Source: Obrimoposthia wandeli (taxonomy: Eukaryota). From it: DNA of 64,000 nucleotides. The notes beneath the pieces were generated by a model, which did not search any database, was not told where the DNA came from, and saw only the letters and a program-made list of their open reading frames with translations. Where the stretch lies: NCBI GenBank assembly GCA_977020255.1, contig CDROCS010001008.1:62001-126000 (forward strand). The letters run 5' to 3'. Made by a program: the position numbers and the translations under genes. Positions 1 through 61,760 of this stretch are shown here, piece by piece. Within the stretch, counting starts at the first letter, position 1. Each line of letters opens with the position of its first letter.

Positions 1-3000
1 GGTTCCATCGTGGTACTGGATCATTACTGCTGTTTTCAATGACTTCGGAATTACTACTACTATCTTTCCGACATTGTCGACAATATACAAGATTCCTTCT
101 TTTATTGAGTATTTTTTCGTCATTTCATCGTTTAGATCTCCTTTCACCAACAATTCTTTGATTAGACTCAGTTCTTCATCTTCTTTCTGTTCTTTGATGA
201 TCTCTTTGTCTATTTTACCCGTCTTCAGCAAAATCGTCAGTAGATTTGCTTCTCCTTTTTGGTCATTGGTTTCATCTTGTTCTTCCTCTGGAATTATGTT
301 TCCTTTCTCATCTATATTTGTCAATCTCGATAAACAATCTGCGTTGCCATTCGACTTTCCGGTTCTATAACGGATTTCTAGATCGAATTCGGCCAATTTT
401 AGAAACCATCTGTTTAATCTACTCATCTCATCTCTATGTTTATATAAGAACTGTAGTGGTTTGTGATCTGTATACAGGAATACTTTTTGTCCTAGCAAGT
501 AGTGTCTGTACTGTCTACATGAATACACTATGGCTAGACATTCCTTTTCAATAACAGAGTATCCTCTTTCGGCTCTGTTTAATCCTCTACTCGCATACGC
601 GATGACGTGTTCTCTTCCTTCGTCATCCTCTTGTCCCAATACTGCTCCTACAGCATAGTTACTTGCATCTGTCATGAGTATGAATTGTCGGTTTATATCT
701 GGAAACGCTAATATTGGTGCTTTTATCAGTCTTTCTTTTAAATGCTCGAACACTTGTTGGGCTTCTTCTCCCCATATGAACTTCTCATCTTTTCTCGTCA
801 ACTTTCTCAATGGTGTTGTTATATCTGAAAAATGTTCAACAAATCGTCTATAATAATTCGCAAGACCTAAAAAACTCTGTATCTCCTTAACAGTCTTTGG
901 CGCTAAATGCGCTTTTACTTTCTCGATCTTTGCCGGATCAGGTCGAATGCCTTCTTTCGATACTATATGTCCTAAAAATGTTACTCGCTCTTTAGCCCAT
1001 TCGCATTTTGTAGGTTTAACTTTTAATTTAGCGTTTTCCAGTCTTTTAAATACAACTTCAAGATTTTTTAAATGTTCTTCGAACGTTTTCGAAAATATTA
1101 TTATGTCATCGATATAAACCATCGTGTTTGCACACGATGCGAGTACAAAATTCATGCAACGCTGAAATGTTGCTGGAGCTCCTGTCAGTCCGAATGGCAT
1201 CTTTTCGCATTCGTATAATCCATCTCCGCAGGAAAAGGCTGTTTTGTGTTTATCCTCTTCCTCTATCTCGATTTGCCAGTATCCACTCTGCAAATCTAAT
1301 GTTGTAAAATAATCTGAATTACCCAATTTATCGAGCATCTCTTCGATTCTAGGTAATGGATACACATCTTTTCTTGTGATCTTGTTCAGTTCTCTGAAAT
1401 CTATACAGAATCTCATTTTCCCATCCTTCTTTTTTACCAACACCACAGGTGCTGAGAATGGTGAAAAACTTGGTCTAATTACTCCTGTTTTAGACATGTC
1501 TTCAATCTGACTTTTTACTTCATCTTGTAACTGTAATGGTACTCGATATGGTCTTCTTCTGACTACTTTGTCTTCTGTCAGTGGTATTGTATGTTTTATG
1601 ACAGGTGTTTCTCCTATGTCATATGGATTTTTTGCAATTACTTTCGGAAATTTATGTATTAGATCAAGTAATTGTTTCTTTTCTCTAGTTGTCAATCTTT
1701 CTGATTGGATTACTATTTCTTCGTAATCATTCGTATCTTTATCGAGTTTCATAGCACACACGGTGGGATTCTCCATCTGTGCTATCTTTCCCAACCTCAT
1801 TCCTCTGTATAATAGAATGTCATTGTTGGTTGTATTCATCAGTCTAACTGGTATTTTGTGGTTTTCGATCAGACATACTGTACTCACAACTGGTAATTCG
1901 TATTTCTCTATGAAATCTTGTGATGGTTCGAACACAACTGGTCCTTTATCTTCTGATAATGTGTGACCTTGAATGAGAAATTGTGATCTTTTACCGATTT
2001 TTATAGGATTCTCTATAATTACATCAATTTGGTTTATTTGTCTGTTTGATGTGCTATCCTTCAATCTCGGATCTTGTAAATCAATACTTATCCCTTTAAG
2101 TTGTGATAGTACATCCATTCCTAAAATTGTAGGTTCAGGACATTCTTTCATGATTCTAACTGGTATAGTGATCGTATTACGTCCAATTATAAATGTACAT
2201 GGTAATATTCCCGTCACTTTAACAGGGTCTCCATTGACCGATACCAAGAATTCATCTGGTTCTGCCATTGTTCGTTTCTGTTCTTCTGTCAAACAGTCTT
2301 CACTTACTATCGAAGCTACATCACCTGTATCAATTAAGGCTTTTACTCTTAAATTATTTACTCTAATGATAGCTGCTGGTCGCTGTGCTCCATTTATATT
2401 TCCCATATGGTATATTGTATTTATCGAATTATTACACTCTGTCGGTCCACTTCCTTTGTTTGGATAGTGAAATCTAATGTTTCTCACTTGTCGATCTATT
2501 ATTCTTCGACAAATCGGACATGATACCATTTCATTCGCACATCTCCGACATGTTCTTACATGTCCGCATGGTAGAAAGGCAACTTCTATTTTGTTGACCA
2601 TGTAAACTGCACATTCCGGATCTTCTAGTACGTATTCTAGTTCATTTATGTACTCTTTCTCTTTTGTTTCAATTGTACTGTCATCTTTATCTTTTAGTAA
2701 TTCAAAAATTGATCCGTATCCATTTCGCGTAGTTTTTATTTTTAATTCTACCAAATCTCTGATTCTTTCTGCTTCTTTTGGATATAACCTTCTCACGAAT
2801 GACACTACTGGTGTGTCTTGTTGAGCCAAAATCTCTTTCCGTGTGATTTGGTATTCGATTATACATTCGGTTTTCTGTTCTTTTTGCTTTATTTTGTTTT
2901 TAAAAGTACAAAATTCGCAAAATTCATGATGTAAAATTTTCTTAGGTAGCTCAAGAGTATATCTGTCGTTAATTCGTTCTTTTTTACACTTGTGGCATTT

Positions 3001-3681
3001 AATTACGTCTTTACCATCCTTTTTTATAGCAAAAAGTCCCTTTTTTGTCAATTTTTTAAGTCTTGGATCTTCGAAAGTTATTTCTCGATACTGTTCGTCA
3101 CATTCGTTCACTTCTCGCATAACTTCGAATATATCTTCAATTCGGCTATTTGTTATTACTCTACCTGTTATTAGAGCTGATTTTCCTTTTGGAATCTCGT
3201 CACTGTAATCGAAATCGGGTGCTTTTCCTTTTTGGATTTCTGGTACGTTTGACGTTTTCAGTTTCAAAAGAAATGGACAATTTGGTGCATCTCTTTTATG
3301 ACGTCTCATTGGGTTTTCATTCTTTTCCCACTCTCTAAACTTTACTCTACACCATACGCATCGTACTACTATCTCATGACCATAACTGCTTGTCGCGTTT
3401 AACATTTCTAAACCTGATCTTGCCATTTTACGTGCCATTTCTTTTGAATAGTACAGTTCTAATATATTTCGTCTCTTTTTCTCGAATCTCATGGGATCCT
3501 TTTCTGACAGATTCACATATGTTATTTTCCTCCTCGTCATCTCTTGTGGTCCGAGGTTTACGTTTTTGTAGTGAAGTATCGACTTTACTAGCGCTTCCTG
3601 TTTTTTGTCTTGGTACGAATTTCCCATACGGAACGTAGTGTATTTTTCCTTTTCGACATTTTTATCTCTCTCACTGAACTG
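1..3681 (-). CDS. pol: ORF2/Pol polyprotein: BIR-BIR-UBA-RING-protease-RT-RNase H-(integrase start); open at the window edge
   Basis: I translated it codon by codon from 3681 (after TGA 3682-3684) to base 1 with no stop (1227 codons). First ATG is at 3627. It is in the -1 frame relative to ORF1 and overlaps it at 3588-3681. It ends ...VVIPKSLKTAVMIQYHDGT, the start of the integrase Zn-binding region. Confidence 0.96.
324..684 (-). other. RNase H domain
   Basis: FILMTDASNYAVGAVLGQ...AYASR...YSVIEKECLAIV...YTDHKPL...NGNADCLSRL. Confidence 0.97.
841..1551 (-). other. Reverse transcriptase domain
   Basis: PYRVP...SPFSAPVVLVKKKDG...YIDD (1105-1116)...FLGHIVSKEGIRPDP...FLGLANYYRRF. Confidence 0.98.
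2085..2385 (-). other. Retropepsin aspartic protease 2 (in Pol)
   Basis: VKALIDTGDVASIVSE (DTG 2323-2331)...VSVNG...PTILGMDVL. Confidence 0.92.
2497..2613 (-). other. IAP-type RING finger (second Cys replaced by Tyr)
   Basis: CAVYMVNKIEVAFLPCGHVRTCRRCANEMVSCPICRRII matches the IAP RING pattern CxxC(M)xxxIxVxFxPCGHxxxCxxCAxxxxxCPICR. TAC at 2602-2604 stands where TGC is expected. Confidence 0.93.
2689..2820 (-). other. IAP-type UBA domain
   Basis: QDTPVVSFVRRLYPKEAERIRDLVELKIKTTRNGYGSIFELL resembles the cIAP UBA as I recall it (NTPVV...KILTTGENYKTV). It lies between BIR and RING, as in XIAP/cIAP. Confidence 0.7.
2905..3099 (-). other. BIR domain 2 (divergent)
   Basis: YREITFEDPRLKKLTKKGLFAIKKDGKDVIKCHKC...LHHEFCEFC: RxxTF, G-aromatic, DxxxCxxC, C-x2-C-x18-H-x6-C. 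Confidence 0.7.
3268..3492 (-). other. BIR domain 1
   Basis: KMARSG...VVRCVWCRVKFREWEKNENPMRRHKRDAPNCPFL has the exact canonical C-x2-C-x16-H-x6-C spacing, plus W and the terminal PxCPF. Confidence 0.92.
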
Positions 3682-5042
3682 TCATTCTTATAACTCTTGT
3701 TGTTTGGTAATATAATTATTCCTTCAAACATTCTTATTACGTCCATCCCAATCATGACTGGACTTCCGCAATCTGTGAATATTCTAGCATTTAACTGTAA
3801 TGCTCTTCCATCGATATTTAATGAACATTTCAGTGTTCCTTCCGACACTACATCTGTACCATTCACGTTAACAAATGTCTGTTTTCTAGGACATACTTCT
3901 CTTAATTCTTTTGATGACAAGATTTCTTTACTCAGTACTGATACTGCAGATCCAGTATCAACTTCGGCAAGATATTCTCTTCCGTTCAATGTTACTGCTA
4001 CTTGTGGTGGAGCATTTGGATTCTCATTTGATATCCTAGATTTCAGAATTCTTCTGGAATTATCTTTTTTGTCTTTTTCCTCTGCTTGTGGAATCTCACT
4101 GTAGCTCACTTTAGGCCATCTTATCATTAAGATGCCTCTCTTGAACTTTTCCTTCTCTTCCTTTAGTTCCTTCATTGGGTATAGGTTTAACGCCACTTCT
4201 TCCTTGTCTGGTAACGGAATCTTTGGTTTTCCTGGTATCTTTGCATATACTCCTGGGCTATCATTATCGTCGTCGTCTCGATAGTTTCTTGGTTCTCGCA
4301 TCATGGTTCTCGTTTGATGTTGCTTCTTCTTGAGGGCTCGCAACTCGTTCTCGTGATGATGGTGCATTAGATATTTTGCTAAAAATGGAAAACATCCAAT
4401 TATAAGTTGCCAGGTGATTCCGGTTATCCTGTATAAACTATACGTAGACAACACCTGGGCTATAATTACCTGTACAAATTTAATTATAACATAAATACCT
4501 ATGATACCCGAAAATAATTGTCCTAAAACAAGGAATTTCCCCCACATCTTTCTAAGTGTCTGATGTGCTGCTTCCTTGAAATGACTTGGTGATAATAACA
4601 TATCAAAATTCGCATATCTAGCTCCTGGTGGTAATGCTCGATGTACCATCTCCGTAAGTACTCTGGCTCTTTTTACTGGAAACATTATTTCGTTCCATGC
4701 CGCTTTTAAATCTTTTTCATTGTACAATCCTGCGTTCTCCATATTTTCTACCGCTTCAAATTTCATTTTACCTTTAAGATTCGTCATTCTTATCATCGCT
4801 GGAGTTTTCGTTGGCTTTCGATCAGGTAGCGTTATCCATAGATCATTCGTCATCTGATATTCAGGTGCCATTATATTAGAGCAGCTGATTTCTTTAGTTG
4901 GAGTGTCTTTTGGAAGTATCATTCTCGTGATTGGTTCAACAAAGAGTTCTTTTAAATTATACGTTACTGCCAATTCACTCGTACATCGATCTGTTTTTCT
5001 CAACTGTACCTCTACTTTATTACACTTGTAAGTATACAACAC
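3588..5042 (-). CDS. ORF1 C-terminal part: glycoprotein C-half, TM, cytoplasmic tail, protease 1 (in frame with 5043-9875 across one TAG)
   Basis: Same frame as the upstream ORF (ATG GGA TAG GTG TTG). TM/amphipathic segment MWGKFLVLGQLFSGIIGIYVIIKFVQVIIAQV (about 4365-4547). Protease motif LAEVDTGSAVS...VMIGMDVI. Confidence 0.9.
   Translation of the reverse strand: MLYTYKCNKVEVQLRKTDRCTSELAVTYNLKELFVEPITRMILPKDTPTKEISCSNIMAPEYQMTNDLWITLPDRKPTKTPAMIRMTNLKGKMKFEAVENMENAGLYNEKDLKAAWNEIMFPVKRARVLTEMVHRALPPGARYANFDMLLSPSHFKEAAHQTLRKMWGKFLVLGQLFSGIIGIYVIIKFVQVIIAQVLSTYSLYRITGITWQLIIGCFPFLAKYLMHHHHENELRALKKKQHQTRTMMREPRNYRDDDDNDSPGVYAKIPGKPKIPLPDKEEVALNLYPMKELKEEKEKFKRGILMIRWPKVSYSEIPQAEEKDKKDNSRRILKSRISNENPNAPPQVAVTLNGREYLAEVDTGSAVSVLSKEILSSKELREVCPRKQTFVNVNGTDVVSEGTLKCSLNIDGRALQLNARIFTDCGSPVMIGMDVIRMFEGIIILPNNKSYKNDSSVREIKMSKRKNTLRSVWEIRTKTKNRKR
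3600..3606 (-). promoter_or_regulatory. Putative -1 ribosomal frameshift slippery heptamer A_AAA_AAC
   Basis: ORF1-frame codons ACA AAA AAC AGG AAG CGC TAG. It has X_XXY_YYZ form in the correct phase, three codons before the ORF1 stop, and the -1 frame is Pol. Confidence 0.75.
3725..4010 (-). other. Retropepsin aspartic protease 1 (end of ORF1)
   Basis: PQVAVTLNGREYLAEVDTGSAVSVLS (DTG 3951-3959)...VNVNG...SPVMIGMDVI. Confidence 0.92.
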
Positions 5043-6218
5043 CTATCCCATGGTTTTAGCAAATACTCCTTCATCCAAGGGTAATAATGGTGCTACCATG
5101 TCTGGATTCGTAATAGCTAATACTAGCTTTGTTCTTACGATCTCTTTGTTTAGCTGGCAATCTCTTTCGATCATCATCCGATATAACTGTTCCATTTGCA
5201 TCAATCCTTTATGATAATAGAAATCAATTTTATTATTAAAATACGTGTGTAGCTGCATATCTCTAGGTTTTAGCTCGGTTTCTGCCAATGCTATTGCTTC
5301 TTTGGACAAAACTATTCCAGGATAGTTTGTAGTACTAACAGTCATTCCGCATCGCGCTTTGTTTCTCTTTTTAATAAATATCAATCCTTCTTCTATTGAT
5401 GTTGCCATTAACAGTGTAGGTGTCTTTGTCATTGGAATTGGTCTTGCTTCATTTAGCAATCCTTTTCCAACTTTATTATACAGGAATCCTTCTCCATCTT
5501 TATTATACAGGAATCCTTTTATTTTGTTAAAGCTAATCTCTTTCAAAAATACTAAAGAGCATTGCTTCGGATTCACGTGATACACAATTGTGGATTCGCC
5601 TGTAAAACAAGATGTATCTGTCATTTTACATTCTGGATACTTCATCATTAGTTGTGTCTTTTTATCAAAATTGGCAGTCCATGTTTTTAATTCAATTTTG
5701 TAAGTTACGTCCATTACTAACTCGGTTACTTTGGTTCCACGCACGTTTTTTGTTCCTCCGTCACAAGATCCATCAGCCCATCGTTGTCCGACTCTCGTGA
5801 CTGTTTCGTATCGTCTTAGTCCAATTTTTACATCAGGTTTGTAATTCTTGTCTACTTCTATTGTTCCCGTTCGAAATGCGTCCTCGCAATCTCTCGGCAA
5901 AACCTTATGTGCTTTGTACGATGTGGTAGGTGTGATTTCCGACATAAAACTTCTATGGCCACAATAGAATTCGTGATAACTTGAATGGATTGAACATTCT
6001 TTCACTTCTACTTGTACTTTATCAACGTCCTGATACACAAAGTAGTTTTCAACATCTTTAACTTCTAATTTTGACGGTTGTGATTCTGGACAGTCTTCGC
6101 TGTCAAGCAGTGAATACTTTTGTCCCATCTTTGGTATGCTACAGTCGTATGCTATCAATCCTGATGCCTGTTGCATTCCCATGAACATTACTAACATCAT
6201 CATCATTGTTGTGGACAT
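4365..6218 (-). other. env: Envelope glycoprotein, chuvirus G / herpes gB-like (class III fusogen), with internal signal peptide
   Basis: Hydrophobic MMMMLVMFMGMQQASG is followed by LIAYDC...SLL...DC, FYCGHRS, DCEDAFRTGTI, DGSCDGG, a Cys-rich ectodomain, DCQLN, KCNKVEV and a C-terminal TM. I recognise these motifs from chuvirus-type glycoproteins; no search was run. Confidence 0.8.
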
Positions 6219-9200
6219 ATTCGGCTGATTGTTTCTCTCTTTCGGACGGTATTGTTTATTTTCTCTTTGACGATTCTCATGACATTGTTCGTCATCGTCT
6301 TCATTCATTTCCACAATGGTTTTAGCGTAGTCACTTAATTTTGCCCAACCTCCGTTTTCGTCAATTCGTCTCTGTAATACATTCTCGATCAAATACATCG
6401 CTTCATTTATTCCTTGTTTGACTTCGTGAGGTTGGCTCATTCGTTCCGTCAATTGGAAACATAGATATGTAATCGCTGTAATTAACTTTTTATTTGTAGT
6501 CTGGTTTCCACACAATCTCGCTAAAACTTCACCGTCATAAAATCTATCTATTGATGCATGGTATACATGATTCGCAGTCATTCTCTTTACTGCAGACATC
6601 TGTGATCTAACTGCTTTAGTCAAATTGTCTGTTATATCGGTTGTTTCATCTCTGTACATTTTGAACAACTTCGGCTTCACTTGTCTGAGAATTCCCGTAA
6701 GTATATCTTTACTACTTGGAGTTTCCGAATTCATATCACCTCTGATATCTTCATTCCGCTCCGTACTATACTGCTCTAATGACGCTGCTAACTGTCCAAT
6801 GCTTAGATGTCTCTCTTCATCAGTTTGTGGTGCAGTTAGAACATTTCGTAATATACTTCCGTCTTTTCTAGGTCTTCCAGGTCCTCTTCGAAAATACTGA
6901 TACTCAGTTTGATTCTCTCCTGGATCATACGGTTCACCATTATACTGTATTTCTTGACTTGGTCCTTCTTCTTGGCCAATCTCTTCATTTTGTCGCATCA
7001 TCTGCTCTGCTTGTCTATCTTTGTATGCAGCATGCCAAATTGGTGAATCTAAATCTACAATTTCGGAGATTTCATCTTCTCCTACTAGTTGGTTTACGTT
7101 TTCGTTTTGTCTCGCTTGGTTAGCTGTATCCGTGACTTCATCTTGTCTGATTTGAATTATATCTGGTTCTGGTGGTACCTCGACCACTGGAGTTGTCAAC
7201 TCATTTTCTAAATTCATGTCTTGTAATTCAGCTACGTACGGTTCTGGTGTGGATGTCTTGTTCCAAGCTTCAGCTACATCATTATCTCCGCTTTCGCTTG
7301 AACTGTCTAAAATTTCTATAGGCGTTTTTATCATTTCTAACGCAGAATTTAATATCTCCGTTAATCCTTCATTATCTACTAACTCTTGACGTCCTACAGT
7401 GATGACATCAATTTTTTCCTCTAATTCATTTCCTATCGGATATCCACACTCGACTGGTACGTCCTCATCATCTAGTGATCTCCCTTTATAATGGAACAAC
7501 ATATTCATTCCATCAATTTCAAGTTTCTCGGCCAACTTTTTCCGAATAGTTTTCATTGTCTGATACACGTTAAGTTTTTCATGTATAATATGTCCGGAAA
7601 TTAATCGAAGTGAAATTTTCATCGTTCCTTTTTGGTTTGATCTCTGTACGTAACGATCATATCCTTTCAATAATCCTCGTGGTACTTCTTTGTAACCCAA
7701 GTTATCATGACTATGTTTAACCAATTCTGCTCGCACTTCTTCCAATCTGTGCACTTTAATTGTTTGCAATTTGGCCAAAACTTCTGGAGCTTCACTCGTT
7801 TCATCTAACGGTTGATTCAACGTCTCCTTAGCTTCACTAATTATCTTTTTTACATTTTCCATACTCGTAGCATTTCTGGCTGCTTCTACATGATCAGTCA
7901 TAGGTTGTGCGTTACACGTTTTCTCTATTGGTGTCTCATACGCTTCTAGTATTTGATTCATTAACTCATTCATCTCTTCTCTCGAGTGTAGACTTTTTTC
8001 TTGTTTCGACAACGTAGATGAATTCGCCATCTTTGTATGTGGTGAATCTTTAATTATTCCCAACATTCGTTCAAATTTACTATCACTATCTTCAAAATCT
8101 ATTTCGCGTCGAAGTTCGGTCTCGCGATTCCTATCGCTGTCATCGCTTACATAACTAAAATTTCCCTTCGGCTTCGGCGAACTCTCACGACTATTTGTCT
8201 TGTCAACATTATTATTATTATATCTACCGGAATTATTATATCTCTCAGCTCCTTGCTGTCCTACATAATTATTGTATCTCTCAGCTCCTTGCTGTCTGTC
8301 TGCATAGTTATTGTATCTACCTGGTGACTGTTGTCTATCTGTATACTGATTATTCGGTCTCCATGGCTGTGGAGTATATCCACCACCTCTATTCCATGGC
8401 GGAGGTGAATTATATCCTCTATAATTATTTCCAAAATTATTATTACCGAAATTATTATTTCCAAATCTGTTAGTTCCGAACTCCTTACTTCTCGTACAAT
8501 CTCTCGAATAGTGACCCATTTGTTTACACGTGTAACACATTATTCTCCCTCGAATATCTATCTTATTTTGTTCATCTTCGAACTGTACTCGACGACTATT
8601 CTGTCTATTATCATAGCGTCCTCTAAAATCATTTCTTCGGAAATTCGATTCAAAACCGCTTCCTCGATTATTGAATCTTCCGTCACTACTTCCTGTATTA
8701 TTTCCAAATCGAGAGTCACTTCGCTCTCCTCTGTTTGCGTTGTAATTCCTATCGTCTCCTCTCCAAGGTTGGCGATTTCCTGAATTATCTCTATTAAATC
8801 TATTCCTGGAATCATCTCTATTTCTATTCCACGAATCATTACCATTTCTACCTCTTGAATCATCTCGATTCCTGTTCCAAGACTCACTATTATTTCTACC
8901 TCTCGAATCATCTCGATTCCTACTTCGGAAATTATCTCTGTTTCCGTTACTGGATTCATCTACTTTTTCAAACTTATTTTGTCCATAATTTCGATTCTGA
9001 AAATTACTCGGTTCTGTTTTATTCACAAATACCTTTGTCTTATCGTCGTCACCTGCAGTCATTGCGTAAATTGCCAATGCTGCGTTATTTTTTATATTTT
9101 TCTCAATCTCTCTCGCCTTTCGCACGGCGTTATCAAAATCATTTGTATCCGATACTGCTAATAACACTTTAATATCTTTTTTCAATCCTCCTCTAAATAT

Positions 9201-9875
9201 ATCTAACAAAACCTCTGCCATTTCATTTTGGTTCCGGTCGTTTTCCGCTGCTTGTGCTTCTTGAGCTACAGGAATACCGTCCTGATTTCTCATTATTCTT
9301 CTTGGGTACGCTCTTGCGGCCAAGGTTCTCAAAACATACGCGTATTCATTCACACCTTCGTCATGTTTCTGTTTCCGTTCTCTCATGAGTCGCTTATTTA
9401 CTTTGGCTAAGTCTCCTAATACCAATTTTCCAATAAAAGCATTTTCCAACGTTGGCCAGTCTAAACGTTCTGCTTCTGTCAAATGTTTATACACTTCAAG
9501 TGCTAATCCGGTTAAGTGTGCCTGTACTCGGACACATTTTTCTTTATCGTTCCATCCTTGAACATCTGCACAACTCGAATATTCTGCGAGGAAGTCACAA
9601 ATAATTTCCTCATCTCCTTTAAACTTTGTAATCTGCAATGATCCTGAAAAGTTGGGTCTCAACGTCGCATTTAAAGCTTGTGCCAACTGTTCGGCATTCA
9701 TGTCACCTACATTATTTCCTGCATTATTATCTGCTTGAGCTCCTGGGTGAGCCATATTTTCAATTATATCCTCTTCAACTATTCCTTCAATATTATTCAA
9801 TTGAACTTCCTCAATCACTACTGGATTGGCAATTTCAAATTCTTCTGGGTTTATGTCACCAAATAATTCAGTCAA
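5043..9875 (-). CDS. gag: ORF1 N-terminal part: Gag (capsid, CCHC), UBL, AT-hook, Bcl-2-like, signal peptide, glycoprotein N-half
   Basis: 1610-aa ORF from TTG 9875; first ATG at 9755. Retrotransposon capsid-like segment ITKFKGD...DFLAEY...GWND...HLTGLALEVY...W..L...F, and zinc knuckle CYTCKQMGHYSRDC. Confidence 0.93.
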   Translation of the reverse strand: MTELFGDINPEEFEIANPVVIEEVQLNNIEGIVEEDIIENMAHPGAQADNNAGNNVGDMNAEQLAQALNATLRPNFSGSLQITKFKGDEEIICDFLAEYSSCADVQGWNDKEKCVRVQAHLTGLALEVYKHLTEAERLDWPTLENAFIGKLVLGDLAKVNKRLMRERKQKHDEGVNEYAYVLRTLAARAYPRRIMRNQDGIPVAQEAQAAENDRNQNEMAEVLLDIFRGGLKKDIKVLLAVSDTNDFDNAVRKAREIEKNIKNNAALAIYAMTAGDDDKTKVFVNKTEPSNFQNRNYGQNKFEKVDESSNGNRDNFRSRNRDDSRGRNNSESWNRNRDDSRGRNGNDSWNRNRDDSRNRFNRDNSGNRQPWRGDDRNYNANRGERSDSRFGNNTGSSDGRFNNRGSGFESNFRRNDFRGRYDNRQNSRRVQFEDEQNKIDIRGRIMCYTCKQMGHYSRDCTRSKEFGTNRFGNNNFGNNNFGNNYRGYNSPPPWNRGGGYTPQPWRPNNQYTDRQQSPGRYNNYADRQQGAERYNNYVGQQGAERYNNSGRYNNNNVDKTNSRESSPKPKGNFSYVSDDSDRNRETELRREIDFEDSDSKFERMLGIIKDSPHTKMANSSTLSKQEKSLHSREEMNELMNQILEAYETPIEKTCNAQPMTDHVEAARNATSMENVKKIISEAKETLNQPLDETSEAPEVLAKLQTIKVHRLEEVRAELVKHSHDNLGYKEVPRGLLKGYDRYVQRSNQKGTMKISLRLISGHIIHEKLNVYQTMKTIRKKLAEKLEIDGMNMLFHYKGRSLDDEDVPVECGYPIGNELEEKIDVITVGRQELVDNEGLTEILNSALEMIKTPIEILDSSSESGDNDVAEAWNKTSTPEPYVAELQDMNLENELTTPVVEVPPEPDIIQIRQDEVTDTANQARQNENVNQLVGEDEISEIVDLDSPIWHAAYKDRQAEQMMRQNEEIGQEEGPSQEIQYNGEPYDPGENQTEYQYFRRGPGRPRKDGSILRNVLTAPQTDEERHLSIGQLAASLEQYSTERNEDIRGDMNSETPSSKDILTGILRQVKPKLFKMYRDETTDITDNLTKAVRSQMSAVKRMTANHVYHASIDRFYDGEVLARLCGNQTTNKKLITAITYLCFQLTERMSQPHEVKQGINEAMYLIENVLQRRIDENGGWAKLSDYAKTIVEMNEDDDEQCHENRQRENKQYRPKERNNQPNMSTTMMMMLVMFMGMQQASGLIAYDCSIPKMGQKYSLLDSEDCPESQPSKLEVKDVENYFVYQDVDKVQVEVKECSIHSSYHEFYCGHRSFMSEITPTTSYKAHKVLPRDCEDAFRTGTIEVDKNYKPDVKIGLRRYETVTRVGQRWADGSCDGGTKNVRGTKVTELVMDVTYKIELKTWTANFDKKTQLMMKYPECKMTDTSCFTGESTIVYHVNPKQCSLVFLKEISFNKIKGFLYNKDGEGFLYNKVGKGLLNEARPIPMTKTPTLLMATSIEEGLIFIKKRNKARCGMTVSTTNYPGIVLSKEAIALAETELKPRDMQLHTYFNNKIDFYYHKGLMQMEQLYRMMIERDCQLNKEIVRTKLVLAITNPDMVAPLLPLDEGVFAKTMG
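6321..6710 (-). other. Bcl-2-family-like domain (divergent)
   Basis: BH3-like ILRQVKPKLFKMYRDE (cf. TLRQAGDDFSRRYRRD), weak BH1-like TNKKLITAITY (cf. VNWGRIVAFFEF), BH2-like LQRRIDENGGWAKLSDY (cf. LHTWIQDNGGWDAFVELY). NGGW is at 6345-6356. Confidence 0.6.
6859..6890 (-). other. AT-hook motif
   Basis: RRGPGRPRKDG contains the GRPRK core. Confidence 0.65.
7386..7622 (-). other. Ubiquitin-like (beta-grasp) domain
   Basis: MKISLRLISGHII...TMKTIRKKLAEKLEI...LFHYKGRSLDD aligns ungapped to ubiquitin 1-52 with identities at M1, I3, G10, I13, T22, K29, K33, I36, G47, L50 and D52. No C-terminal GG. Confidence 0.8.
8496..8537 (-). other. Gag CCHC zinc knuckle
   Basis: CYTCKQMGHYSRDC (CX2CX4HX4C). Confidence 0.97.
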
Positions 9876-9925
9876 ATAAAAGCTGTCGGTTGAAACCGCT
9901 GATTGATTAACGTCTCTTTCTGATA

Positions 9926-10132
9926 CGATTTCTCAAAACTTATCAAATTCCTAACTTCGAGGAACAAATCTACTCGATTTCTCAAAACTTATCAAATTCT
10001 TAACTTCGAGGAACAAATCTACTCGATTTCTCAACACTTATCAAATTCTTAACTTCGAGGAACAAATCTACTCGATTTCTCAACACTTATCAAATTCTTA
10101 ACTTCGAGGAACAAATCTACTCGATTTCTCAA
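9926..10132. repeat. 49-bp tandem repeat, 4 full copies plus a partial, in the 5' leader
   Basis: Unit cgatttctcaaaacttatcaaattcttaacttcgaggaacaaatctact starts at 9926, with full copies to 10121. Confidence 0.95.
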
Positions 10133-10139
10133 AAAAAAC

Positions 10140-10527
10140 TTATCTCAATTTACTTATATCTTCTTCTGAAACTTATTCTAAATTTGCTTATATCTTCTTC
10201 TGAAACTTATTCTCAATTGTCTATATTCTTCTGCTGAAACTTATTCTCAATTTATCTGAAACTTATTCTCAATATCTGAACTTATTCTATTTACCTGAAA
10301 TTTATTCTCAATTATCTGAAACTTATTCTCAATATCTGAACTTATTCTATTTACCTGAAACTTATTCTCAATATCTGAACTTATTCTATTTACCTGAAAC
10401 TTATTCTCAATTATCTGAAACTTATTCTCAATATCTGAACTTATTCTATTTACCTGAAACTTATTCTCAATATCTGAACTTATTCTATTTACCTGAAACT
10501 TATTCTCAATATCTGAACTTATTCTAC
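10140..10527. repeat. Compound ~19/38-bp tandem repeat in the 5' leader
   Basis: Reiterated ctgaaacttattctcaatat / ctgaacttattctattta units. Confidence 0.9.
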
Positions 10528-10552
10528 GTGAATTCGCTGTGTCCGACGAGCT

Positions 10553-10571
10553 ATCCTCACTCGGGACACCA
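10553..10571 (-). promoter_or_regulatory. Primer binding site, complementary to a tRNA 3' end (elongator tRNA-Met-like)
   Basis: Minus strand reads TGGTGTCCCGAGTGAGGAT. The plus strand ATCCTCACTCGGGACACCA ends in CCA and resembles elongator tRNA-Met 3' ends (...ATCCTCACACGGGGCACCA). The tRNA identity is inferred. Confidence 0.85.
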
Positions 10572-11189
10572 CTTTAATATGTTGGGGTTTCTATACGAGA
10601 CTTGTATAGATCCTCTTGTGTGCGGAGGGCCCCAACGTGAGTTCGAATAGAAGCAGGTCTTAAAGTTGGTCGTGGCCTACTTAGTGCTATGGTTGCCTGT
10701 CTCAATTTCTTATCTGAAGGTGTTTGTTTTGACGTCTCTTAATCTGAAGGGTTTAAAACAACGTTTTCTAATGTAGGAAATCGTTTATTGGTAGCACACT
10801 AAACTGAACACAACAATACGTTTACGTACGTATTTTCTAAAAAGTATAGTAAAAATTCCTAAGACTTCTGTAAGTCTCTACAACAAGTGGGGATGAACCA
10901 CGTATCGATTTTACGTTCGGGGTGATCGAGATTTTAGAGTTATTCCTCTGACTCGAGAATGAGCTCACGTTACAGATTTCTCAACAATTTAACTCTGCTA
11001 TCGGCTTGAACTTTTGAGGTTAAACCTTTATTCTTATGTCAATAAAGGTGCGAATGCAAAACTTCTTTCTAAGTTGGTTAATTTATAACACAACTCTTTT
11101 AAAACTTTCTTTTAACTTAGACGAAAACTTAAATCGTGTTGGGTAAAGCTGTCTTTAATTTGGATAACTTTCTATTGTTACGAATTCAG

Positions 11190-11630
11190 ACGAGAATTGT
11201 CAACTTCGGACAATGAATGAATGACCTAATTGTCAACTTCGGACAATGAATCGAATTTAGGCCTAATTGTCAACTGTGGACAATGATTCGTATGGAGGCC
11301 TAATTGTCAACTGTGGACAATGATTCGTATGGAGGCCTAATTGTCAACTGTGGACAATGATTCGTATGGAGGCCTAATTGTCAACTGTGGACAATGATTC
11401 GTATGGAGGCCTAATTGTCAACTGTGGACAATGATTCGTATGGAGGCCTAATTGTCAACTGTGAACAATGATTCGTATGGAGGCCTAATTGTCAACTGTG
11501 GACAATGATTCGTATGGAGGCTTAATTGTCAACTGTGGACAATGATTCGTATGGAGGCCTAATTGTCAACTGTGGACAATGATTCGTATGGAGGCCTAAT
11601 TGTCAACTGTGGACAATGATTCGTATGGAC
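11190..11630. repeat. 37-bp minisatellite, ~12 copies, inside the LTR
   Basis: Unit ggaggcctaattgtcaactgtggacaatgattcgtat; the AATTGTCAAC core recurs every 37 bp from 11228 to 11598. Confidence 0.97.
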
Positions 11631-11780
11631 CTATATGGCTCGTCTCACCTATCCAATCCTAGAGTTTTTCGAGGTCTGGATCCGTGGACTGTCAGAGGGC
11701 TGGCTCTGTTCGAACTCGCCAGTAACGATTTGGTCGGAGAGATGTTTGTCTGTCCGTACTCTTTGGTTCTTCTAGATCAC

Positions 11781-12093
11781 CTCAATTTGTCTTCTTTAAT
11801 TTTCACTCAATTTGTCTTCTTTAATTTTCACTCAATTTGTCTCTTTAATTTTCACTCAATTTGTCTCTTTAATTTTCACTCAATTTGTCTCTTTAATTTT
11901 CACTCAATTTGTCTCTTTAATTTTCACTCAATTTGTCTCTTTAATTTTCACTCAATTTGTCTCTTTAATTTTCACTCAATTTGTTTCTTTAATTTTCACT
12001 CAATTTGTCTCTTTAATTTTCACTCAATTTGTCTCTTTAATTTTCACTCAATTTGTCTCTTTAATTTTCACTCAATTTGTCTCTTTAATTTTC
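11781..12093. repeat. 24-bp minisatellite, ~13 copies, inside the LTR
   Basis: Unit tttaattttcactcaatttgtctc, which produces the LIFTQFVS repeat ORF. Confidence 0.97.
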
Positions 12094-12603
12094 GACTCCA
12101 ATTATTTTTTCTGAAATTAGTTAGTAAAATTCTTTTATACTAATTCCTTACCTCTCAGCAACCGCGACTGTCAATTCTGGACAGCTGAAATAAATTGAAG
12201 TAGTGAGCGCTGCAGTAACTGACTGTGACGCTTCCTGTCACTCAAATTTGGCAGCTGAAATAAAACAACGATTGTTGGGGATTGACTGGCTGAAAATAAA
12301 GTAAACGATTTAATCAATAATCGTAACTTACAGCAATTTCTTCTTTCCTTGATTTCTTTTTCGATTATTTGCTTGCTTTTTGCTTCTTAGTTTATTTTCT
12401 TTTTGCACTTTAATATTTTCCAATCAACCTATATATATAACACATTACACACGACCTTCGTGGTCCTCTTAATATTTACCCCTAATTTTAGTCCTAATAT
12501 TTTAACTCGATTTTAAATATTTAATTTTCAACCTTGCTTTCAAGGATTTTTATTTTAGTATAAATTTAACTAATTCTTTTAATTTTTCAATTCCTAAATC
12601 TAA

Positions 12604-13755
12604 CACATATATTTTAATAACAAAAAGGATTATCATAAAGGATTAATACATAAGGAACAAATATATCAGATGATGGTTGAGTTAGATTGTCAGTTAAATA
12701 AAGAGATACTAAGAGCAAAGTCGGCACTAGCTATTACGAATACAGACATGGTATCACCACTATTACCATAAGATGAAGGAGTATTTTCTAAAATCATGGA
12801 AGAAGTACTGAACAAGTGTAAAAAAGTAATGGTACAATTGAGAAAGACAACTTGCCAGTAACATATCATTTTGTAGAATCAAAAACAAAAAAAGGCTTTC
12901 TAAAGTCACTCAAACTAAAGAAATCAGTTGCTCTAGTATAATAGCATATGAATATCAACTTTTAACGAACAGTGACTCCAGAATTATAAAAATGACAACA
13001 TTAAAAGGTAAGATGGAGTTCAAAGCTGTAAGGAATGTTGAAAATCCAAGTTTATATAATGAGAAAGATCTAAAAGCTGTCTGGGAAGAAATAATGTTTC
13101 CAGTAAGAAGGGTCAGGGTACACACGGAAATGGAGCAACATATGTAAATTTTGATAGGATTTTGTTGGTAAGTCACTTTAAAGAAGCGGTAGATCAAATT
13201 CTTAGGAAAATTTGGGTGGAAATCCTTATTTTATGACAACTATTCTCAGACCTAATATGAATTTATGTCATAATTAAATTAGTACAAGTAATTATAACCT
13301 AGGTGTTGTTCACATATAGTTTGAACATAATAACAGGAATCCCCTGGCAACTTATAACTTGATGTTTACTATTTTAAGTGAAATAATTAATGCACCATCA
13401 TCACGTGATTTAATTGCGAGCACTCAGAAAGAGCAACCGGAAGTTAGAACCGCATCACGAGAACCAAGTCACATACGAGATGATGACAATTACGATAACG
13501 ATGGTCACGGAGACTATTCAAATATGCCAAATACGGTATACGTTAAGATTCCACCGAAAAAATATATAGAAGATTCAGTACCAAATATATACACTGAAGG
13601 AACTAAAGGAGGAAAACGATAAGATCAAAGCAGAAATTCTTAAAATAAAATCCCCCAGAATGACGTCTGATCATCTTCTACTGACAAAGGAACCAAAGAA
13701 GAAAAAGATAATGCAAAAATAATTTTGAGGGAAAGAATATCTAACGATAATACAA
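12604..13755 (+). pseudogene. Degenerate env-region relic of a related element, inverted relative to the intact copy
   Basis: Translates with stops and indels to YFNN...YHKGL...DCQLNKEILR...VFSKIMEEVL, LYNEKDLKAVWEEIMFPVRRVRV, HFKEA..ILRKIW and RISNDN, collinear with ORF1 positions ~5250 to ~4020. Confidence 0.93.
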
Positions 13756-15187: not shown

Positions 15188-18100
15188 CTGTGGAAAGAGA
15201 GAGCGTGAGTGAATGAGTAAAATAGTGAGTGACAGTGAGCGATTAAATGAATGAAAGTTAGTGAGTGAGAGTGGGTGAGTGAGAATGAGTTAAATTGAAT
15301 GAAAGTGAGTGAGCATAGTGGGTGAGTGAGAGTGAGATTGAGATAGAGTGAGAATGAGAGGGGTAAGAAGGAGAATAAGAGAGATTTAGAGTAGGTGAGT
15401 GAGAGAGAGTAATTTAGGGAGAAAGTAAATAAATGAGAGTAATTGACAGTCAAGTAGAGTGAAGAGCTAAAAAGATGAAAGTCAAATTTTACATAAAAAA
15501 CTTGAAAATAATATTTTACAATAATTATTACAAATAAACGTTCTTTTTATATGCGACTAACATTTCTATGTCAATTTTAACAAAAATAGAAGATAGTAAT
15601 TTTATTCCCTAATTTTAATTTTTTAATCTTATTTTTTGATTTAGGTGTTTTTACTTTTACTCGGTAGATAAGTGGGATAAATATGCATAAGTCAATTCTC
15701 ACTTTTATAAGGTCGCTGTCTATCCGCAAAAGTTGGTAGCCGGAAGTGACACCGCCCTTAATCAGAGTTTCTTGCAGGTGGCTGATACCGGCACTCTTTA
15801 GCCAATCCGCGATCTGGTTTTGCTGCCACTCATTGATTGGCTCCTGTAAGATAGGTAGATCAAATAATAAGTTCTGTAATGTCTCATATCGGATCGAGAC
15901 GGTGATACCTGCACACATACCTGGGTGGGGACTGACGCCAACGTGTATGAGTCCTTGTTGGACTGGTCGCGGGGCAGATAGCTGCTGGGGATGCCTGGAG
16001 AACCGGATGCGACTGCTGCTGACGAGGACGAGGACGAAGACGGCATCGTAATGAACCGCGGACCTACATGCAACCACACAATAATCTATTGTATCTTTCA
16101 GGACAGAGGAAGCATATCCTCATATTTTATACACGATACATTTACTTTATCAAAGTATAAAAATTTGGAATATTGCTTGTTACTTCTGCCTTTGTTAGCC
16201 TTCACATAAATAACATATTGGTCTACTGTATTTCCTGTTGTCTTAACTGTATTGGTGACTTGTGCAAACAACCGCATATCAAGATTCAAGGATCCCAATA
16301 CACACATGACTATTTCGCAACCGAAATCCTGTGTCAACATATAATGAACTTTTGGATGCTCAATTAGAAATGAACCACTTGTTAAATATATATTTTTAAA
16401 AATTCACCACGAAAGTTTATTTTTTTTCAAAAATAATATATTTAAATATATATAATATTCTTGATTTTATTTAATTCATATTATTACTATTTCTTTTTTT
16501 CAAATTTCAATAGTTTCTATACATCTCTTTAAATTCGCGGGCCACGCAACTTATTGAACATGAGTAGGTAACGATCTCATCAGCACAATATGTTTCAATA
16601 AATTATTTGAACCATTTGTTACCTGATCATATCGTTTAATGATAATCCACATTAGTTCCTAACAACCAATTAAAAAATGTGTCATCAACGTCAAATTTTC
16701 AGAAGGATTATCTTGTAGTTTGCCATTACGTACATAACTTTAATTAAAAGAAATTCGTACAATAATTAAAACAAAACAAACAATATGAAATGTTTGATAT
16801 GACATTCGCATTTGTGAAATATTAACTACATTTAAGCAAATCTATATAAACAAACTTTAACGACAATTAATAAAATTAGAAAATTTAAAATTACTAAAAG
16901 GTAGGTATAAATTATTACAAATCTGGATTATTTTTTAATGATGATCAGCGTATCAAAATGGATCATTCTGTGAATGGAGGTTGAAATATGTGATAACACT
17001 ACATCCTATTCGAGTACAATCGTAAATCAGATGAATTCATTGAGATTGTAAATGAACTTCCGAAAATTTACATTGCTATATATGCAGAATATCGTTGAAA
17101 ATGCATTTTCTCCATTGCTATCAGGAGTTCTTTTTCGGTAACTTGCGGGATATGTCTAATGACATATGGTACTACAGTGCTGGACAAAATATAAGCCAGT
17201 AAAAAATATGTTCACAATTATTCAAAATTAAATAATTTGTAAGAGATTTAAAAATACAATTTTAGAATCTACTATGAGACATAATATCTTAGTTTCAATA
17301 TCAATTTATTTTTCGGCAAAATCTCTATCGGTTTTTGAAAAAAATAGGTTTAAGTAAACAAAGACGTATTTTTTTATTTATTTACATTGGACAAAAGTGG
17401 CTTATAATTTTTTTAAATTCAGAATTATTGGTAATTAATAATTTTATAAATATAATTGATTATTTTTTTTAAATAATTTGGTTTCTTGAATGTGTGATCT
17501 ACATTTTTCATAATTTTTTTTTAGATTTATGGCACGTGGAAATGGTTTAACAGAAGAAGAGAAGTGTAACATTGACCGTTATAATAATGAAGGCTTGAAC
17601 CCATCTCAGATTGCAGAAAAGTTGACAAGAAGTAGAGGTGCTGTTAGAAATTATTTAGAAAATAAAACAAGTGGGCAATTGGGCCGTCCTAGGTCATTAG
17701 ATGACCGATCTGTGAGATTATTATGCAGAAAAGCCTCTAATTCTACTAAAAGTTCAGCTCAGTTAAAATCCAACTTAAACCTAAGCTGTTCCTCTCGAAC
17801 AATAAGACGCAGATTATCCGATAATCTTGTATTCTTAAAAATGATATCAAAACCAAATTTGACATCCAGGCACATTGAAAGACGACTTCTGTTTGCTAGA
17901 AATAATCTTAGTACTAATTGGTCAAGAATCATGTTTTCCGATGAAAAAAGATTCAATCTTGATGGTCCAGATGGTCTAAGCAGCTATTGGCACGACAAAA
18001 GAATGCCTCCCATGTCAAAAATTAGAAGACAGTGTAAAGGCGGTGGTATCATGATTTGGGGTGGATTTTCGAAAGAAGGGTTAACTAGTTTATCATTCAT

Positions 18101-21100
18101 AAATGTTAGGATGAACTCTGAAAAATACCAAGAAGTTTTGACAGACCATATTCTACCTTTTACGCAAAAATTTGATATTTTTCAACAGGATAATGCGAGT
18201 GTACATGCTTCTCAATCCACTAGAACATGGTTAGCTGAAAACAATATCAATATTTTAGACTGGCCAGCATGTAGTCCTGATTTAAATCCAATAGAAAATC
18301 TTTGGGGCATTATGGTTAGAGATGTTTATGCAGATTCAAAACAATATGCATCTGTTAATGAACTGAAAACTGGCGTTTTAAGAGCCTGGGAGAAAATAGG
18401 ACAAAACACAATTGATACACTAATTCATTCAATGCCTAATAGGATTTTTGAATTAATTTTAAAGAAAGGAGCAAGCACGCATTATTAGATTTTGTAATTT
18501 GTAATTATTTATTTATTAAAATATCATAAATTAATTAAGTGGCTTATATTTTGTCCAATATAAATAAACTAAATTTTGTTAGTTTTTTATATTTTTGATG
18601 ATAAAATTTAAATTAATTATCAAAATTTCTAAAAAATAAAAATATTATATTAATAAATGTAATAATAATTATGTTATTCAATATCACTTCGATTCTACTA
18701 TTATTTATTTCCTTTTTTTACAAAAAACAGGAATAAAATATACTGGCTTATATTTTGTCCAGCACTGTAGCAGAACAGCACCAATTAGACATGAAAATAA
18801 TGATAGCAGTCTAACCATCCAGCATGGCGTCATTGGCAATCGGTTTTGCAGACATGAGGACGACCTTCTCGTGGTCCTTAGGCCCACGGGTCACGCTGCT
18901 CTTTCTGATCTTGTTGTCTCCCGAGGCCTCTCCAGAAGAAATGACGCCCTTCTTGCTATTGGCGGCGCTGCTGGAGGGAGTGATGCCTGCAGGAACAACA
19001 GCAGTCAAAGGAACAACTTGTGAATATAGCTCTTCAATACCATCTCAGAAGTGTACAGTGCCGAACACAGATGCTACCTTTTCTCGCATTGCCTTGATAT
19101 ATGTAACAAATAAACAAACTATCTGAGCTATTAAAGTTACTGTAAAATAAATAAATTTTAAAAATGCCAAATTGTGAATTATATATCGAAAATATTTTCA
19201 ATGCTACTCAAAATCGTACTTACATTTACGATATGATTAAAATAAAGGGAAAATCACAAATTTTATACTGAAACTAATCAAATAAACGCTGTTCATTTTG
19301 TACATAATATAATCATAATGAAGATAAGTATCATTAACAAGATAAGTTTTCAAAACTATAAATCACAGATTTTTATAATATTTTAAAATTTGCTTAATCA
19401 TCCTAAAACAATACGATTAGCAAATTTAAAAAGTATTTTTTACTTTCTTCTACATTATTTCACATCAAAGTGTATTCATTTAGTAGATTTATTTTTATTT
19501 AAATTGTTTTAAAATGCATAACAATGTTATTATGTATAACTTTAAAATTTGATTTACTTTGAATTTCTGATAACGTTTTTGAGTATCTAATATTTTAACA
19601 TTGTTCCTGCTAACTAATTTGAGAATTTTTTGTAAATATCAAGAACATTTGTGATTTATACTTAGATAACTTTCCTTGTAAGATGCATAAATTTAAAAAA
19701 TTGGTGTCAAATTTTCAAATGTCTTGAGAATTTCGAATGTTGATAAAAATGAGTTATAGTAATTTTCAGTTATTCATAGACATAAATATTACATATGTTA
19801 GGTCATTCCAAAAAACATCATGACTTGTAAAATCAACACGAACATTTGTCACACATTTCTCTCCAAAAATCAAATAAACTGCGATAAGTATTGCGATAGT
19901 AACATAAGCCAAGGTCGAATAATGTTCATTGGACCATGCGGTTGACCAATTGGCATCATCATGCGCAACCTACCTACACAACACGGTCGGCAAAGTGTCC
20001 GACAAAACCAGTAATATCCTGCAACCAGGGACATATTTCAAGGTTAATCGATCACGGTGTCAACTGTTGTCACAGTGACCTTCATCAAAAGGAATTTTCT
20101 GAGCCTTATAATTGAGCATTTTTGCATAAAATCAGAATCTTAAAAAATAAAAATCATACCGAATGAGAGTTTATTATAGCACGCAGTAGCGAACTGTCTC
20201 TGAATTTCAACACGCAACTTAACATTAAAGAGGCGCCATATATTTTGAATATACGAAAAAATAAGAAATATTTCACAAAACATTCATGAAATTAATAAAA
20301 GTTCCAATTCAGTACTTTTTGGTCAAAAAACTCAATTAGTTCATTACCATTAATATGGTTTAGAAATTCTTTTAGAAATTCTTAGAAAGACGTAAGAGAT
20401 TCCAAATGTATTTCAAATAATGCAAAATATAGGAACTTTTGATTTTTCAAATTGTTTAATCTGGTTTAAGTTAGTTGGATGCATCTCGGAGAAAAAGCGT
20501 TATTTTCTCAACAAAGGTAACTTCTGGTAATATTTAATAACACATATTTAAAATCACACCCAAAAACATTTTTTTGAAAATGGTCTTCAGAAAGTCTGTT
20601 AAGTGTCTATTAGCCATCATTTTCTCTAAAAAGGCTTCTGATAATATAAGGGCTTTTCAAACTAGTCGTACTTATTTTTTGATATGTTGAACAGCACATC
20701 GAGAAATTTCTCTACTTTTCTATGGATCAGTCCACCACTGATTTCACGTACATTTCAAATGATTAAAAGATTTCTTACAAAAACACAATGTGCAGATGCT
20801 TTTAGAGTTGAAAGGGATTACTTTAAATGAAGATTCAAATTATCTGTCACAACTTCAATTCCTAGAGATTCACAATTACAGTTTGTATGCATGCAGGAAA
20901 TCGAATTTATTGATTTTCTTGTTTTTTAAATACATTTTTCATACCTGATCTGGATGATTTTATAAACAGTGTTGAAATCAAACAGGAATCAAACAATGTA
21001 TTTACTGGGCTATTTAATAGTGTAATAAAAGTAATGTTGTCACTAAAAACACTTTTGGTGATAACTTATATATTGATTTCCGTATTTCAATGCATGTCAA

Positions 21101-58429: not shown

Positions 58430-58880
58430 TTTTTACTAGGCCGTCAGAATTAAGTTTAAATTAAGAGAAAGTGCTAGAGGACACTTAATGAGGCTTTATT
58501 GGCTACCGATCAATGCCAGAATTGAATTCAAGATTCTACATATTATCAAAAGATGTATTCTCTCACAAAAGCCCAAATATTTATATGATTTTCTCGAACC
58601 TGAAGCAGTTAACGTGTACACGAATCTTAGGAGCAACAATGATGACAGTATATTAGTAAAAAACACTAAATTAACCAACAGGGTGATAGAATACATAAAA
58701 TTTATGCTCCTAATCTTTACAATAGACCGATGAATATAAGAAACTTTACCAATATAGAGAAATTCAAGAAGCAAATGAATACTTTACTATTTAGAAATAT
58801 TACAAAGAATAATGGAAAACAAAAGCGCATTTGAATGATAAATAATAGATTCATAAGATATTAGTGCTATATTAAATATA
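58430..58880 (+). pseudogene. CR1/L2-like LINE 3' fragment
   Basis: LYWLPINARIEFKIL...PKYL...NLRS; shares its 3' sequence with 23890-24110. Confidence 0.7.
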
Positions 58881-61499: not shown

Positions 61500-61760
61500 C
61501 GTATAAAACTCTTTTTTTCTTATATTCAAATAATATAACCTTAGTTTAATTTTCATTCATCTTAAATTGTCTCGATTTCATTCACAAAGCTATTTCAATT
61601 ATAAAATTTTTCATTGCAAAACATGTGATTCAATAATCATTAGAATCAAAATCAACATAAAGTTGTGTGTCATCAGCATAAGGTGTGTCACCATACACGG
61701 CTGTTTCAATTTTAAAACTAAAATTTACATAATGAACTTGCATATTTGAAATTTGAATAT
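61500..61760 (-). pseudogene. CR1/L2-like RT fragment
   Basis: PYADDTQLYVDFD on the minus strand. Confidence 0.65.

Follow-up and report, generated by a model that had tools for sequence, protein, structure and literature searches.

Among the described systems, those nearest to the one studied here are the Burro (GYPSM1) elements, giant planarian Ty3/gypsy retroelements whose domain order is given, in the text of the 2019 description, as Gag-CCHC-Ubi2/SUMO-like-BCL2-Env-PR (PR, protease), together with BIR and ankyrin motifs (PMC6431247). According to that text, they exceed 30 kb with their long terminal repeats (LTRs), have a continuous open reading frame (ORF) of ~4,900-5,100 amino acids, and provide the first case of an in-frame env located between gag and pol; this env has matches to mononegavirus fusion glycoproteins (PMC6431247). 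We analyzed a stretch of 64,000 nucleotides from Obrimoposthia wandeli (assembly GCA_977020255.1, contig CDROCS010001008.1, positions 62,001 to 126,000 of the forward strand; hereafter the window, in whose own coordinates all features are given). Within its initial 10 kb, the window carries an LTR retroelement on the minus strand. The gag frame of this element contains an envelope region that very probably belongs, as the env domain, to a Burro-like element of the Ty3/gypsy (Metaviridae) GAG-ENV-POL type, in a copy that is defective.

GAG-ENV-POL errantiviruses with a gB-type envelope were reported in 2026 from Nematoda, Bryozoa, and Platyhelminthes (PMC13524379). The main text of that paper contains none of the terms "polyprotein", "splic", and "frameshift", and thus does not address expression; it also cites non-canonical nematode endogenous retroviruses with a flipped env-pol order. 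The RNA of Burro elements is reported to rise in tissue depleted of piRNAs (PMC8532177). In-frame gag-env-pol elements are in print (PMC6431247, PMC13524379), so that an initial annotation of this stretch started from an outdated premise in taking such env genes to be confined to the 3' side of pol. In BEL/Pao elements, the envelope-like genes of Roo, Tas, and Cer-7 are described as downstream of the polyprotein (PMC7642597).

The window element shares with the Burro elements, as described, the order Gag-CCHC-Env-PR, with env in the gag frame apart from one stop codon, as well as a BIR and tandem repeats in the non-coding parts (PMC6431247); putative ubiquitin-like and BCL2-like domains, with matches under the Pfam cut-offs, occur ahead of env in the expected order. 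It differs in having one CCHC knuckle instead of two or three, in its BIR-RING module located between two proteases, in its probably smaller size (it leaves the window), and in its ORF1, which is one polyprotein of 4,873 amino acids in the published element (PMC6431247) but is interrupted inside env in the window copy, where the frame also changes ahead of BIR. As the agreement covers order, env family, and BIR, and not size, extra domains, ORF continuity, or placement by reverse transcriptase (RT), we call the element Burro-like and not a Burro. With the GAG-ENV-POL errantiviruses it has in common a Ty3/gypsy pol, a gB-fold env ahead of pol, and an ectodomain between hydrophobic segments; by eye, its env domain I resembles six Schmidtea mediterranea C1a rows, and the nematode rows much less (PMC13524379). 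The elements in that text are intact, whereas the window copy is broken by the stop at 5045-5043. The Anakin BEL/Pao elements, which carry a chuvirus G, share the glycoprotein family with the window env but have a BEL/Pao pol (PMC7642597), whereas the window pol is gypsy-type: the Pfam set of its second frame is RVT_1, RT_RNaseH, and gag-asp_proteas, and none of the 11 families listed is Pao-type. Troyka (PMC12440569) was considered and rejected, as it is described without an envelope.

Envelope domain and coding layout of the element

As stated in the initial annotation, a signal-like segment, a Cys-rich ectodomain with a LIAYDC motif, and a transmembrane (TM) span share the frame of gag and precede both proteases and pol; they are seen on the minus strand, to which all coordinates below refer unless indicated otherwise. 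From Met 9755, the gag frame (ORF1) encodes successively a capsid-like region, a CCHC knuckle, a ubiquitin-like domain, an AT-hook-like motif, a Bcl-2-like domain, the signal-like segment (6159-6218), the ectodomain (4545-6158, ~540 amino acids with 14 Cys), which opens at 6158 with LIAYDC directly after the signal-like segment, a hydrophobic span, and a first protease (PR1), and it ends at 3588. A second frame (ORF2), overlapping ORF1 from 3681, encodes a BIR, a weaker BIR, a RING, a second protease (PR2), the RT, and RNase H (RH), and exits the window at the start of the integrase (IN). The annotation had placed env between gag and protease in a single ORF, which does not hold for this copy as assembled, since an in-frame TAG splits the gag frame and pol lies in another frame; neither was mentioned.

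The envelope is, judging from profile matches and a structural model, a class III (gB/chuvirus-type) fusogen for which fusion activity may be inferred, in agreement with the initial annotation, and class III similarity was found by Pfam and structure searches alike. The Pfam family PF24664 (Monjiviricetes_fusion) matches both env halves, on either side of the stop, far beyond chance (E 3.7e-39 and 3.2e-47, cut-off 27 bits). An AlphaFold2 model, built with X at the stop position and 99 relatives (an alignment of 100 of the 122 rows), shows a whole gB fold, long central helix included, with a pLDDT of 92.1 and a pTM of 0.72; a fold predicted from the single sequence was discarded (pLDDT 34). Against the PDB, herpesvirus gB accounts for 40 of the 40 Foldseek matches listed (best E 3.4e-12, query TM-scores 0.20-0.43) and for 50 of the 50 VIA-align matches listed (best Z 10.9, rmsd 7.2 over 408 residues), and chu-like virus glycoproteins are the top matches listed among predicted viral structures (E 1.8e-41, TM-score up to 0.68). 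By sequence only, the single env protein has no match in the PDB and the env profile a weak one (E 0.01). All 14 Cys are retained in each of four close relatives of full length in which they were counted. The window ectodomain has no N-glycosylation sequon, against ~3 expected, and each of seven relatives has one to four over the scanned region.

The TAG, at 5043-5045 (residue 372), lies inside the ectodomain and is the sole stop in 2055 codons, splitting the frame into 9932-5043 and 5042-3588. Given this position, the copy as assembled makes no membrane-anchored Env, PR1, or Pol, and is thus defective. From the comparisons given below, the TAG looks like a copy-specific lesion and not a functional feature, whether a mutation or an assembly error. 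A related env has left an older, degraded fragment, comprising its 3' half and tail, in the opposite orientation at 12604-13751 (plus strand). Mismatches between env and this fragment number 48, 41, and 86 at the three codon positions, of 255 each, and the excess at the third position indicates that env was under purifying selection after the two had split.

The remaining domains of the element are identified with varying scores. The Gag start and capsid-like region (9102-9755) matches by BLASTP the N-termini of two relatives, P0011 (E 6e-22) and P0004 (E 3e-25), the latter having a sub-cutoff Ty3_capsid match, while the window region itself has no direct Pfam or PDB match. It is followed by the CCHC zinc knuckle of the nucleocapsid (8493-8537; PF00098, E 9e-6), the ubiquitin-like domain (7443-7610; PF00240, E 0.0016, under the curated cut-off), and a pattern match (6864-6890), present ahead of env in four of the 15 proteins examined, which we take to be an AT-hook. 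The Bcl-2-like domain (6339-6707), with a C-terminal BH2-like GGW motif, matches PF00452 with an E of 0.032, under the cut-off; a profile built from five homologous stretches gives E 6e-20, and PF00452 also matches P0004 (E 0.0015) and P0009 (E 0.00096). Beyond env, PR1 (3732-4001; DTG; PF13975, E 3e-6) remains in the gag/env frame, and the IAP-like module made of the BIR, the weaker second BIR, and the RING (2491-3441; PF00653, E 1e-11 over two stretches; PF13920, E 9e-11) heads the pol frame, between the two proteases, so that the element has, with the Bcl-2-like domain, two apoptosis-related modules. PR2 (2092-2385, a Pfam match) precedes RT and RH (385-1437; PF00078 and PF17917, both E 1e-38); a single-sequence PDB search with the PR2-RT linker gave nothing useful. 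The start of the integrase zinc domain is probably located at 1-60: no direct Pfam match is found in the window, but ORF2 aligns with P0002 to residue 1930, inside its Integrase_H2C2 match (1915-1971), and the element continues past the window edge. The pol order PR-RT-RH-IN and the gypsy-type RT and RH fit Ty3/gypsy (Metaviridae), with only the first residues of IN in the window.

Conservation of the layout among relatives

Three protein searches yielded a close group with ~30-44% identity to the window env and a broad band of ~650-residue glycoproteins, mostly with 21-29%. In a FastTree phylogeny of 118 of the 122 aligned rows (four short rows were dropped), the window protein and 17 close proteins form one branch with an SH support of 99. 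Since this clade was selected by search score, the branch shows its coherence and not an independent origin. More than 140 residues precede env in 13 of the 17 clade proteins, and the other four begin inside env; outside the clade, by comparison, 97 of 100 glycoproteins have at most 60 residues ahead of the ectodomain. A protease follows env in 12 of the 17, and an RT as well in five (P0002, P0005, P0010, P0016, and P0017), while a Pfam Gag marker is found ahead of env in four (P0004, P0008, P0013, and P0017) and an RT match upstream of env in none of the 17. An env as a separate ORF after pol is not seen in the close group. P0017 is a single chain with the order capsid-CCHC-Env-PR-RT-RH-IN that ends within the integrase, and P0004 has the order of the window without the stop, namely capsid, CCHC, Bcl-2-like domain, Env, and proteases. 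A continuous gag-env-pro-pol ORF was also, reportedly, described for nematode endogenous retroviruses by Sacco et al. in 2022.

Some relatives show further features. Aspartic-protease repeats follow env in P0001, P0003, P0004, P0008, and P0013, where they number two to four; the window element has two. In P0002 (after residue 2480), P0010 (after 2255), and P0016 (after 2775), the integrase is followed in the same chain by another signal-like segment and, further on, by TM-like segments, which suggests a second membrane protein at the end of these polyproteins. These are three of the four integrase-containing relatives, and their tails barely align and have no Pfam match; the corresponding part of the window element lies past the window edge. 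Outside the close group, the env of P0023 follows a DUF5641 domain, presumably the integrase end of a BEL/Pao element, i.e., an Anakin-like env located after pol.

The passage from ORF1 to ORF2 occurs in the overlap at 3588-3681, ORF1 ending at 3588 and the BIR-RING-PR2-RT-RH part lying in a different frame that extends from 3681 to the window edge. A slippery-type heptamer is found in register at 3606-3600; there are eight such heptamers in ORF1, and 0.12 would be expected per 94 nucleotides. Downstream of it, the RNA folds no better than shuffled sequences (z -0.84 and +0.76), and the codon-usage score of the ORF1 frame, a measure with low power here, turns negative well upstream of the heptamer. 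Relatives show both states, five continuing into RT and four stopping after the proteases. A programmed -1 frameshift at 3606-3600 appears about as likely as a lesion or assembly error.

Internal signal, membrane topology, and expression

The segment ahead of the ectodomain has conserved properties in the 15 proteins that include the region: a hydrophobic core precedes the mature start by 13-21 residues, small residues occupy positions -3/-1 in 14 of the 15, against a background of 0.114, and K/R exceed D/E just upstream in 12. These features fit a cleavable internal signal with a cytosolic N-side, as predicted from motif and hydropathy; in the window it is Met-rich, with small residues at -3/-1. 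In six of the 15 proteins the nearest usable Met is more than 70 residues away, indicating that a dedicated env start codon is not conserved. At the other end of the ectodomain, a membrane-proximal helix, a TM helix, and a weaker second hydrophobic helix are modelled (4365-4544; KD19 hydropathy 2.32 then 1.26), the main hydrophobic span being ~4544-4431. The first of the post-ectodomain helices (TM1) reaches a KD19 of 1.8-2.5 in 14 of 14 proteins, whereas the second reaches 1.6 in only two of 14. Every ribosome proceeding from gag to the protease passes both signal and TM, so that the chain would be threaded through the membrane of the endoplasmic reticulum (ER), and with a single TM pass protease and Pol would end up back in the cytosol, as a fused RT requires.

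Taken as a whole, we are fairly confident that the best explanation is a Burro-like element with a membrane-threaded Gag-Env polyprotein cut by signal peptidase; for intact members, we consider it reasonably probable that the genomic RNA is read as one polyprotein. The Gag, ubiquitin-like, and Bcl-2-like domains would remain cytosolic, while the internal signal would direct the gB-like ectodomain into the ER, where host signal peptidase would cut just ahead of the AYDC motif. One TM helix would then halt transfer, and the tail, PR1, and any BIR-RING-PR2-RT-RH-IN would go back to the cytosol, where the proteases of the element would free the cytosolic tail, PR1, and the Pol parts. The initial annotation had proposed such a membrane-threaded polyprotein for the element itself, with Env made 1:1 with Gag, a ratio that spliced or subgenomic RNAs might alter. 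The stop-free Gag-Env-protease chains of relatives and a signal motif conserved without a start codon argue for it, but the window copy stops inside the ectodomain. Its further proposal, that PR1 and Pol are made tethered to the Env tail, agrees with the RT found in the chain in five of the 17 relatives, but the window copy yields no TM, PR1, or Pol.

In hepatitis C virus (HCV), the envelope signal peptide forms the C-terminus of the capsid protein at the core-E1 junction; the capsid protein is cut by signal peptidase and remains anchored in the ER until a second cleavage (PMC5402940). The virus and its fusion protein are unrelated to the present ones, so the analogy is only mechanistic. By this analogy with HCV and flaviviruses, it is conceivable, though we hold it only tentatively, that the cleaved env signal stays on the Gag-side precursor, as a C-terminal ER anchor beside Env that might double as a tail anchor for the Bcl-2-like domain. 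The latter ends 27-58 residues upstream of the signal in all six proteins with a GGW motif. If so, a single segment would link capsid anchoring to Env translocation and to apoptosis control, and BIR-RING would be made on the cytosolic side. No account of HCV-like assembly of such elements was found in the literature searched, figures and subscription papers not covered.

Several points weigh against the polyprotein explanation or limit its reach. One-chain translation, topology, cleavage, particle formation, and fusion activity are inferred from sequence, whereas domain order, frame, fold, stop, and the conserved layout and signal motif are observed directly. Because the clade members are related and were selected by search score, the counts made on them do not represent independent observations, and the relatives are gene calls judged at the protein level. 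The cleavage site was placed relative to the AYDC motif and not predicted; together with the relatedness of the proteins, this makes the signal and TM pattern a support and not a proof. Four relatives (P0001, P0003, P0004, and P0008) terminate after the proteases without RT, indicating that Pol is not always part of the chain, and the Met-rich signal of the window makes an internal start possible in this copy. As for the Burro comparison, the ubiquitin-like and Bcl-2-like matches are both under the Pfam cut-offs, and the Bcl-2-like region has no support from phmmer against the PDB and only matches below 0.9 in an Atlas search. MATH, Smc, ankyrin, and dUTPase-like domains were not detected in the element by Pfam and phmmer, whereas the Burro description used HHpred, and an ankyrin was found in the relative P0004; the Burro label was set from the published description.

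In the same element, a separate RNA might be the main source of Env, produced by splicing from the gag leader or from an internal promoter, with spliced RNAs setting the Gag:Env:Pol ratio and the in-frame position merely letting ribosomes pass to pro-pol. The several Met codons that open the window signal speak for this, as do the splicing of env RNAs in retroviruses and gypsy and the spliced Gag-only RNA of copia; a synthesis in strict 1:1:1 proportion would also be out of the ordinary. We nevertheless consider it unlikely, because the start Met is poorly conserved (six of 15), no AG with a pyrimidine-rich tract (at least 50%) was listed across 6500-6160, in a test that is poor for the splice signals of this host, and ribosomes going from gag to pro-pol must cross signal and TM, so that this fraction would be threaded anyway. 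Another reading is that Env does not serve for entry but provides a membrane anchor or a scaffold on which assembly inside the cell takes place, or that it is a decaying passenger. The lack of any sequon where ~3 are expected would suit such a role, and neither particle nor fusion data on such elements were found in the literature consulted, but the 14 Cys kept in four full-length close relatives, the complete gB fold modelled at a pLDDT of 92, and the purifying selection read from the third-position excess in the comparison with the fragment (86 vs 48 and 41 of 255) make it very improbable.

The TAG itself might be a site of programmed readthrough, reducing the output of full-length Env and protease compared with Gag, given that the frame is open elsewhere over 2055 codons, that readthrough is used at the gag-pol junctions of some retroviruses, and that one of 152 relatives, the 164-residue fragment P0094, terminates at the TAG position. 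However, this position is spanned by a residue in 143 of the 152 relatives and by a gap in none (nine do not reach it), the fragment at 12604-13751 carries a sense codon at the aligned place, and the ends of fragments among the relatives are scattered along the protein. The TAG also lies mid-fold, within a strand-rich part of the model, and the RNA downstream of it folds no better than shuffled sequences (z +1.2). The residues of the relatives at this position and the absence of downstream structure lead us to reject programmed readthrough, which we regard as the least probable of these alternatives and close to negligible.

Flanking sequences and significance of the layout

Upstream of gag, a leader with 49-, 34-, and 39/21-nucleotide tandem repeats (9877-10543) is preceded by a PBS-like (primer-binding) site beginning with TGG (10554-10571), a few bases past the end of a putative 5' LTR (10581-12449). 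This LTR contains 24- and 37-nucleotide tandem arrays and was read by eye, with a TG start at ~12449 and a CA end at ~10581; its boundaries are candidates only, as the 3' LTR lies beyond the window edge. No tRNA gene to pair with the PBS-like site and no Rfam family was found in the window. The DNA flanking the element has ~30% GC, which would suit a planarian host, an A/T content above 70% being reported for a planarian (PMC11410931).

Elsewhere in the window, a Tc1/mariner-type DNA transposon (17172-18770, plus strand) with perfect 30-nucleotide inverted ends, including TA, looks recent, and its transposase frame is open (324 amino acids, 17514-18488, plus strand). A probable host exon with a SAM domain (15580-16119, minus strand; PF07647, E 6e-5) and a short fragment of another gypsy-type RT (51304-51510, minus strand; E 9e-8) are also present. 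Further along are dispersed and inverted repeat families, a 195-nucleotide element with perfect 30-nucleotide inverted ends, and a 92-nucleotide tandem array; these repeats are found at 23452-24012, 58562-58797, 61022-61681, 26079-26241 with 33633-33809, 27163-27357, and 30832-31226.

The in-frame gag-env-pol layout is real but already published, and this locus adds one more, broken, member. The question that it raises is how GAG-ENV-POL elements are expressed and assembled, and a testable model comes from the internal cleavable signal, which is conserved although a start codon is not. If this model is true, a reverse-transcribing element would build its envelope from the capsid polyprotein by means of the host signal peptidase. 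Enveloped retroelements would then have a second route of formation besides spliced env, and the presence of Bcl-2-like and IAP-like domains on the two sides of env would be explained.

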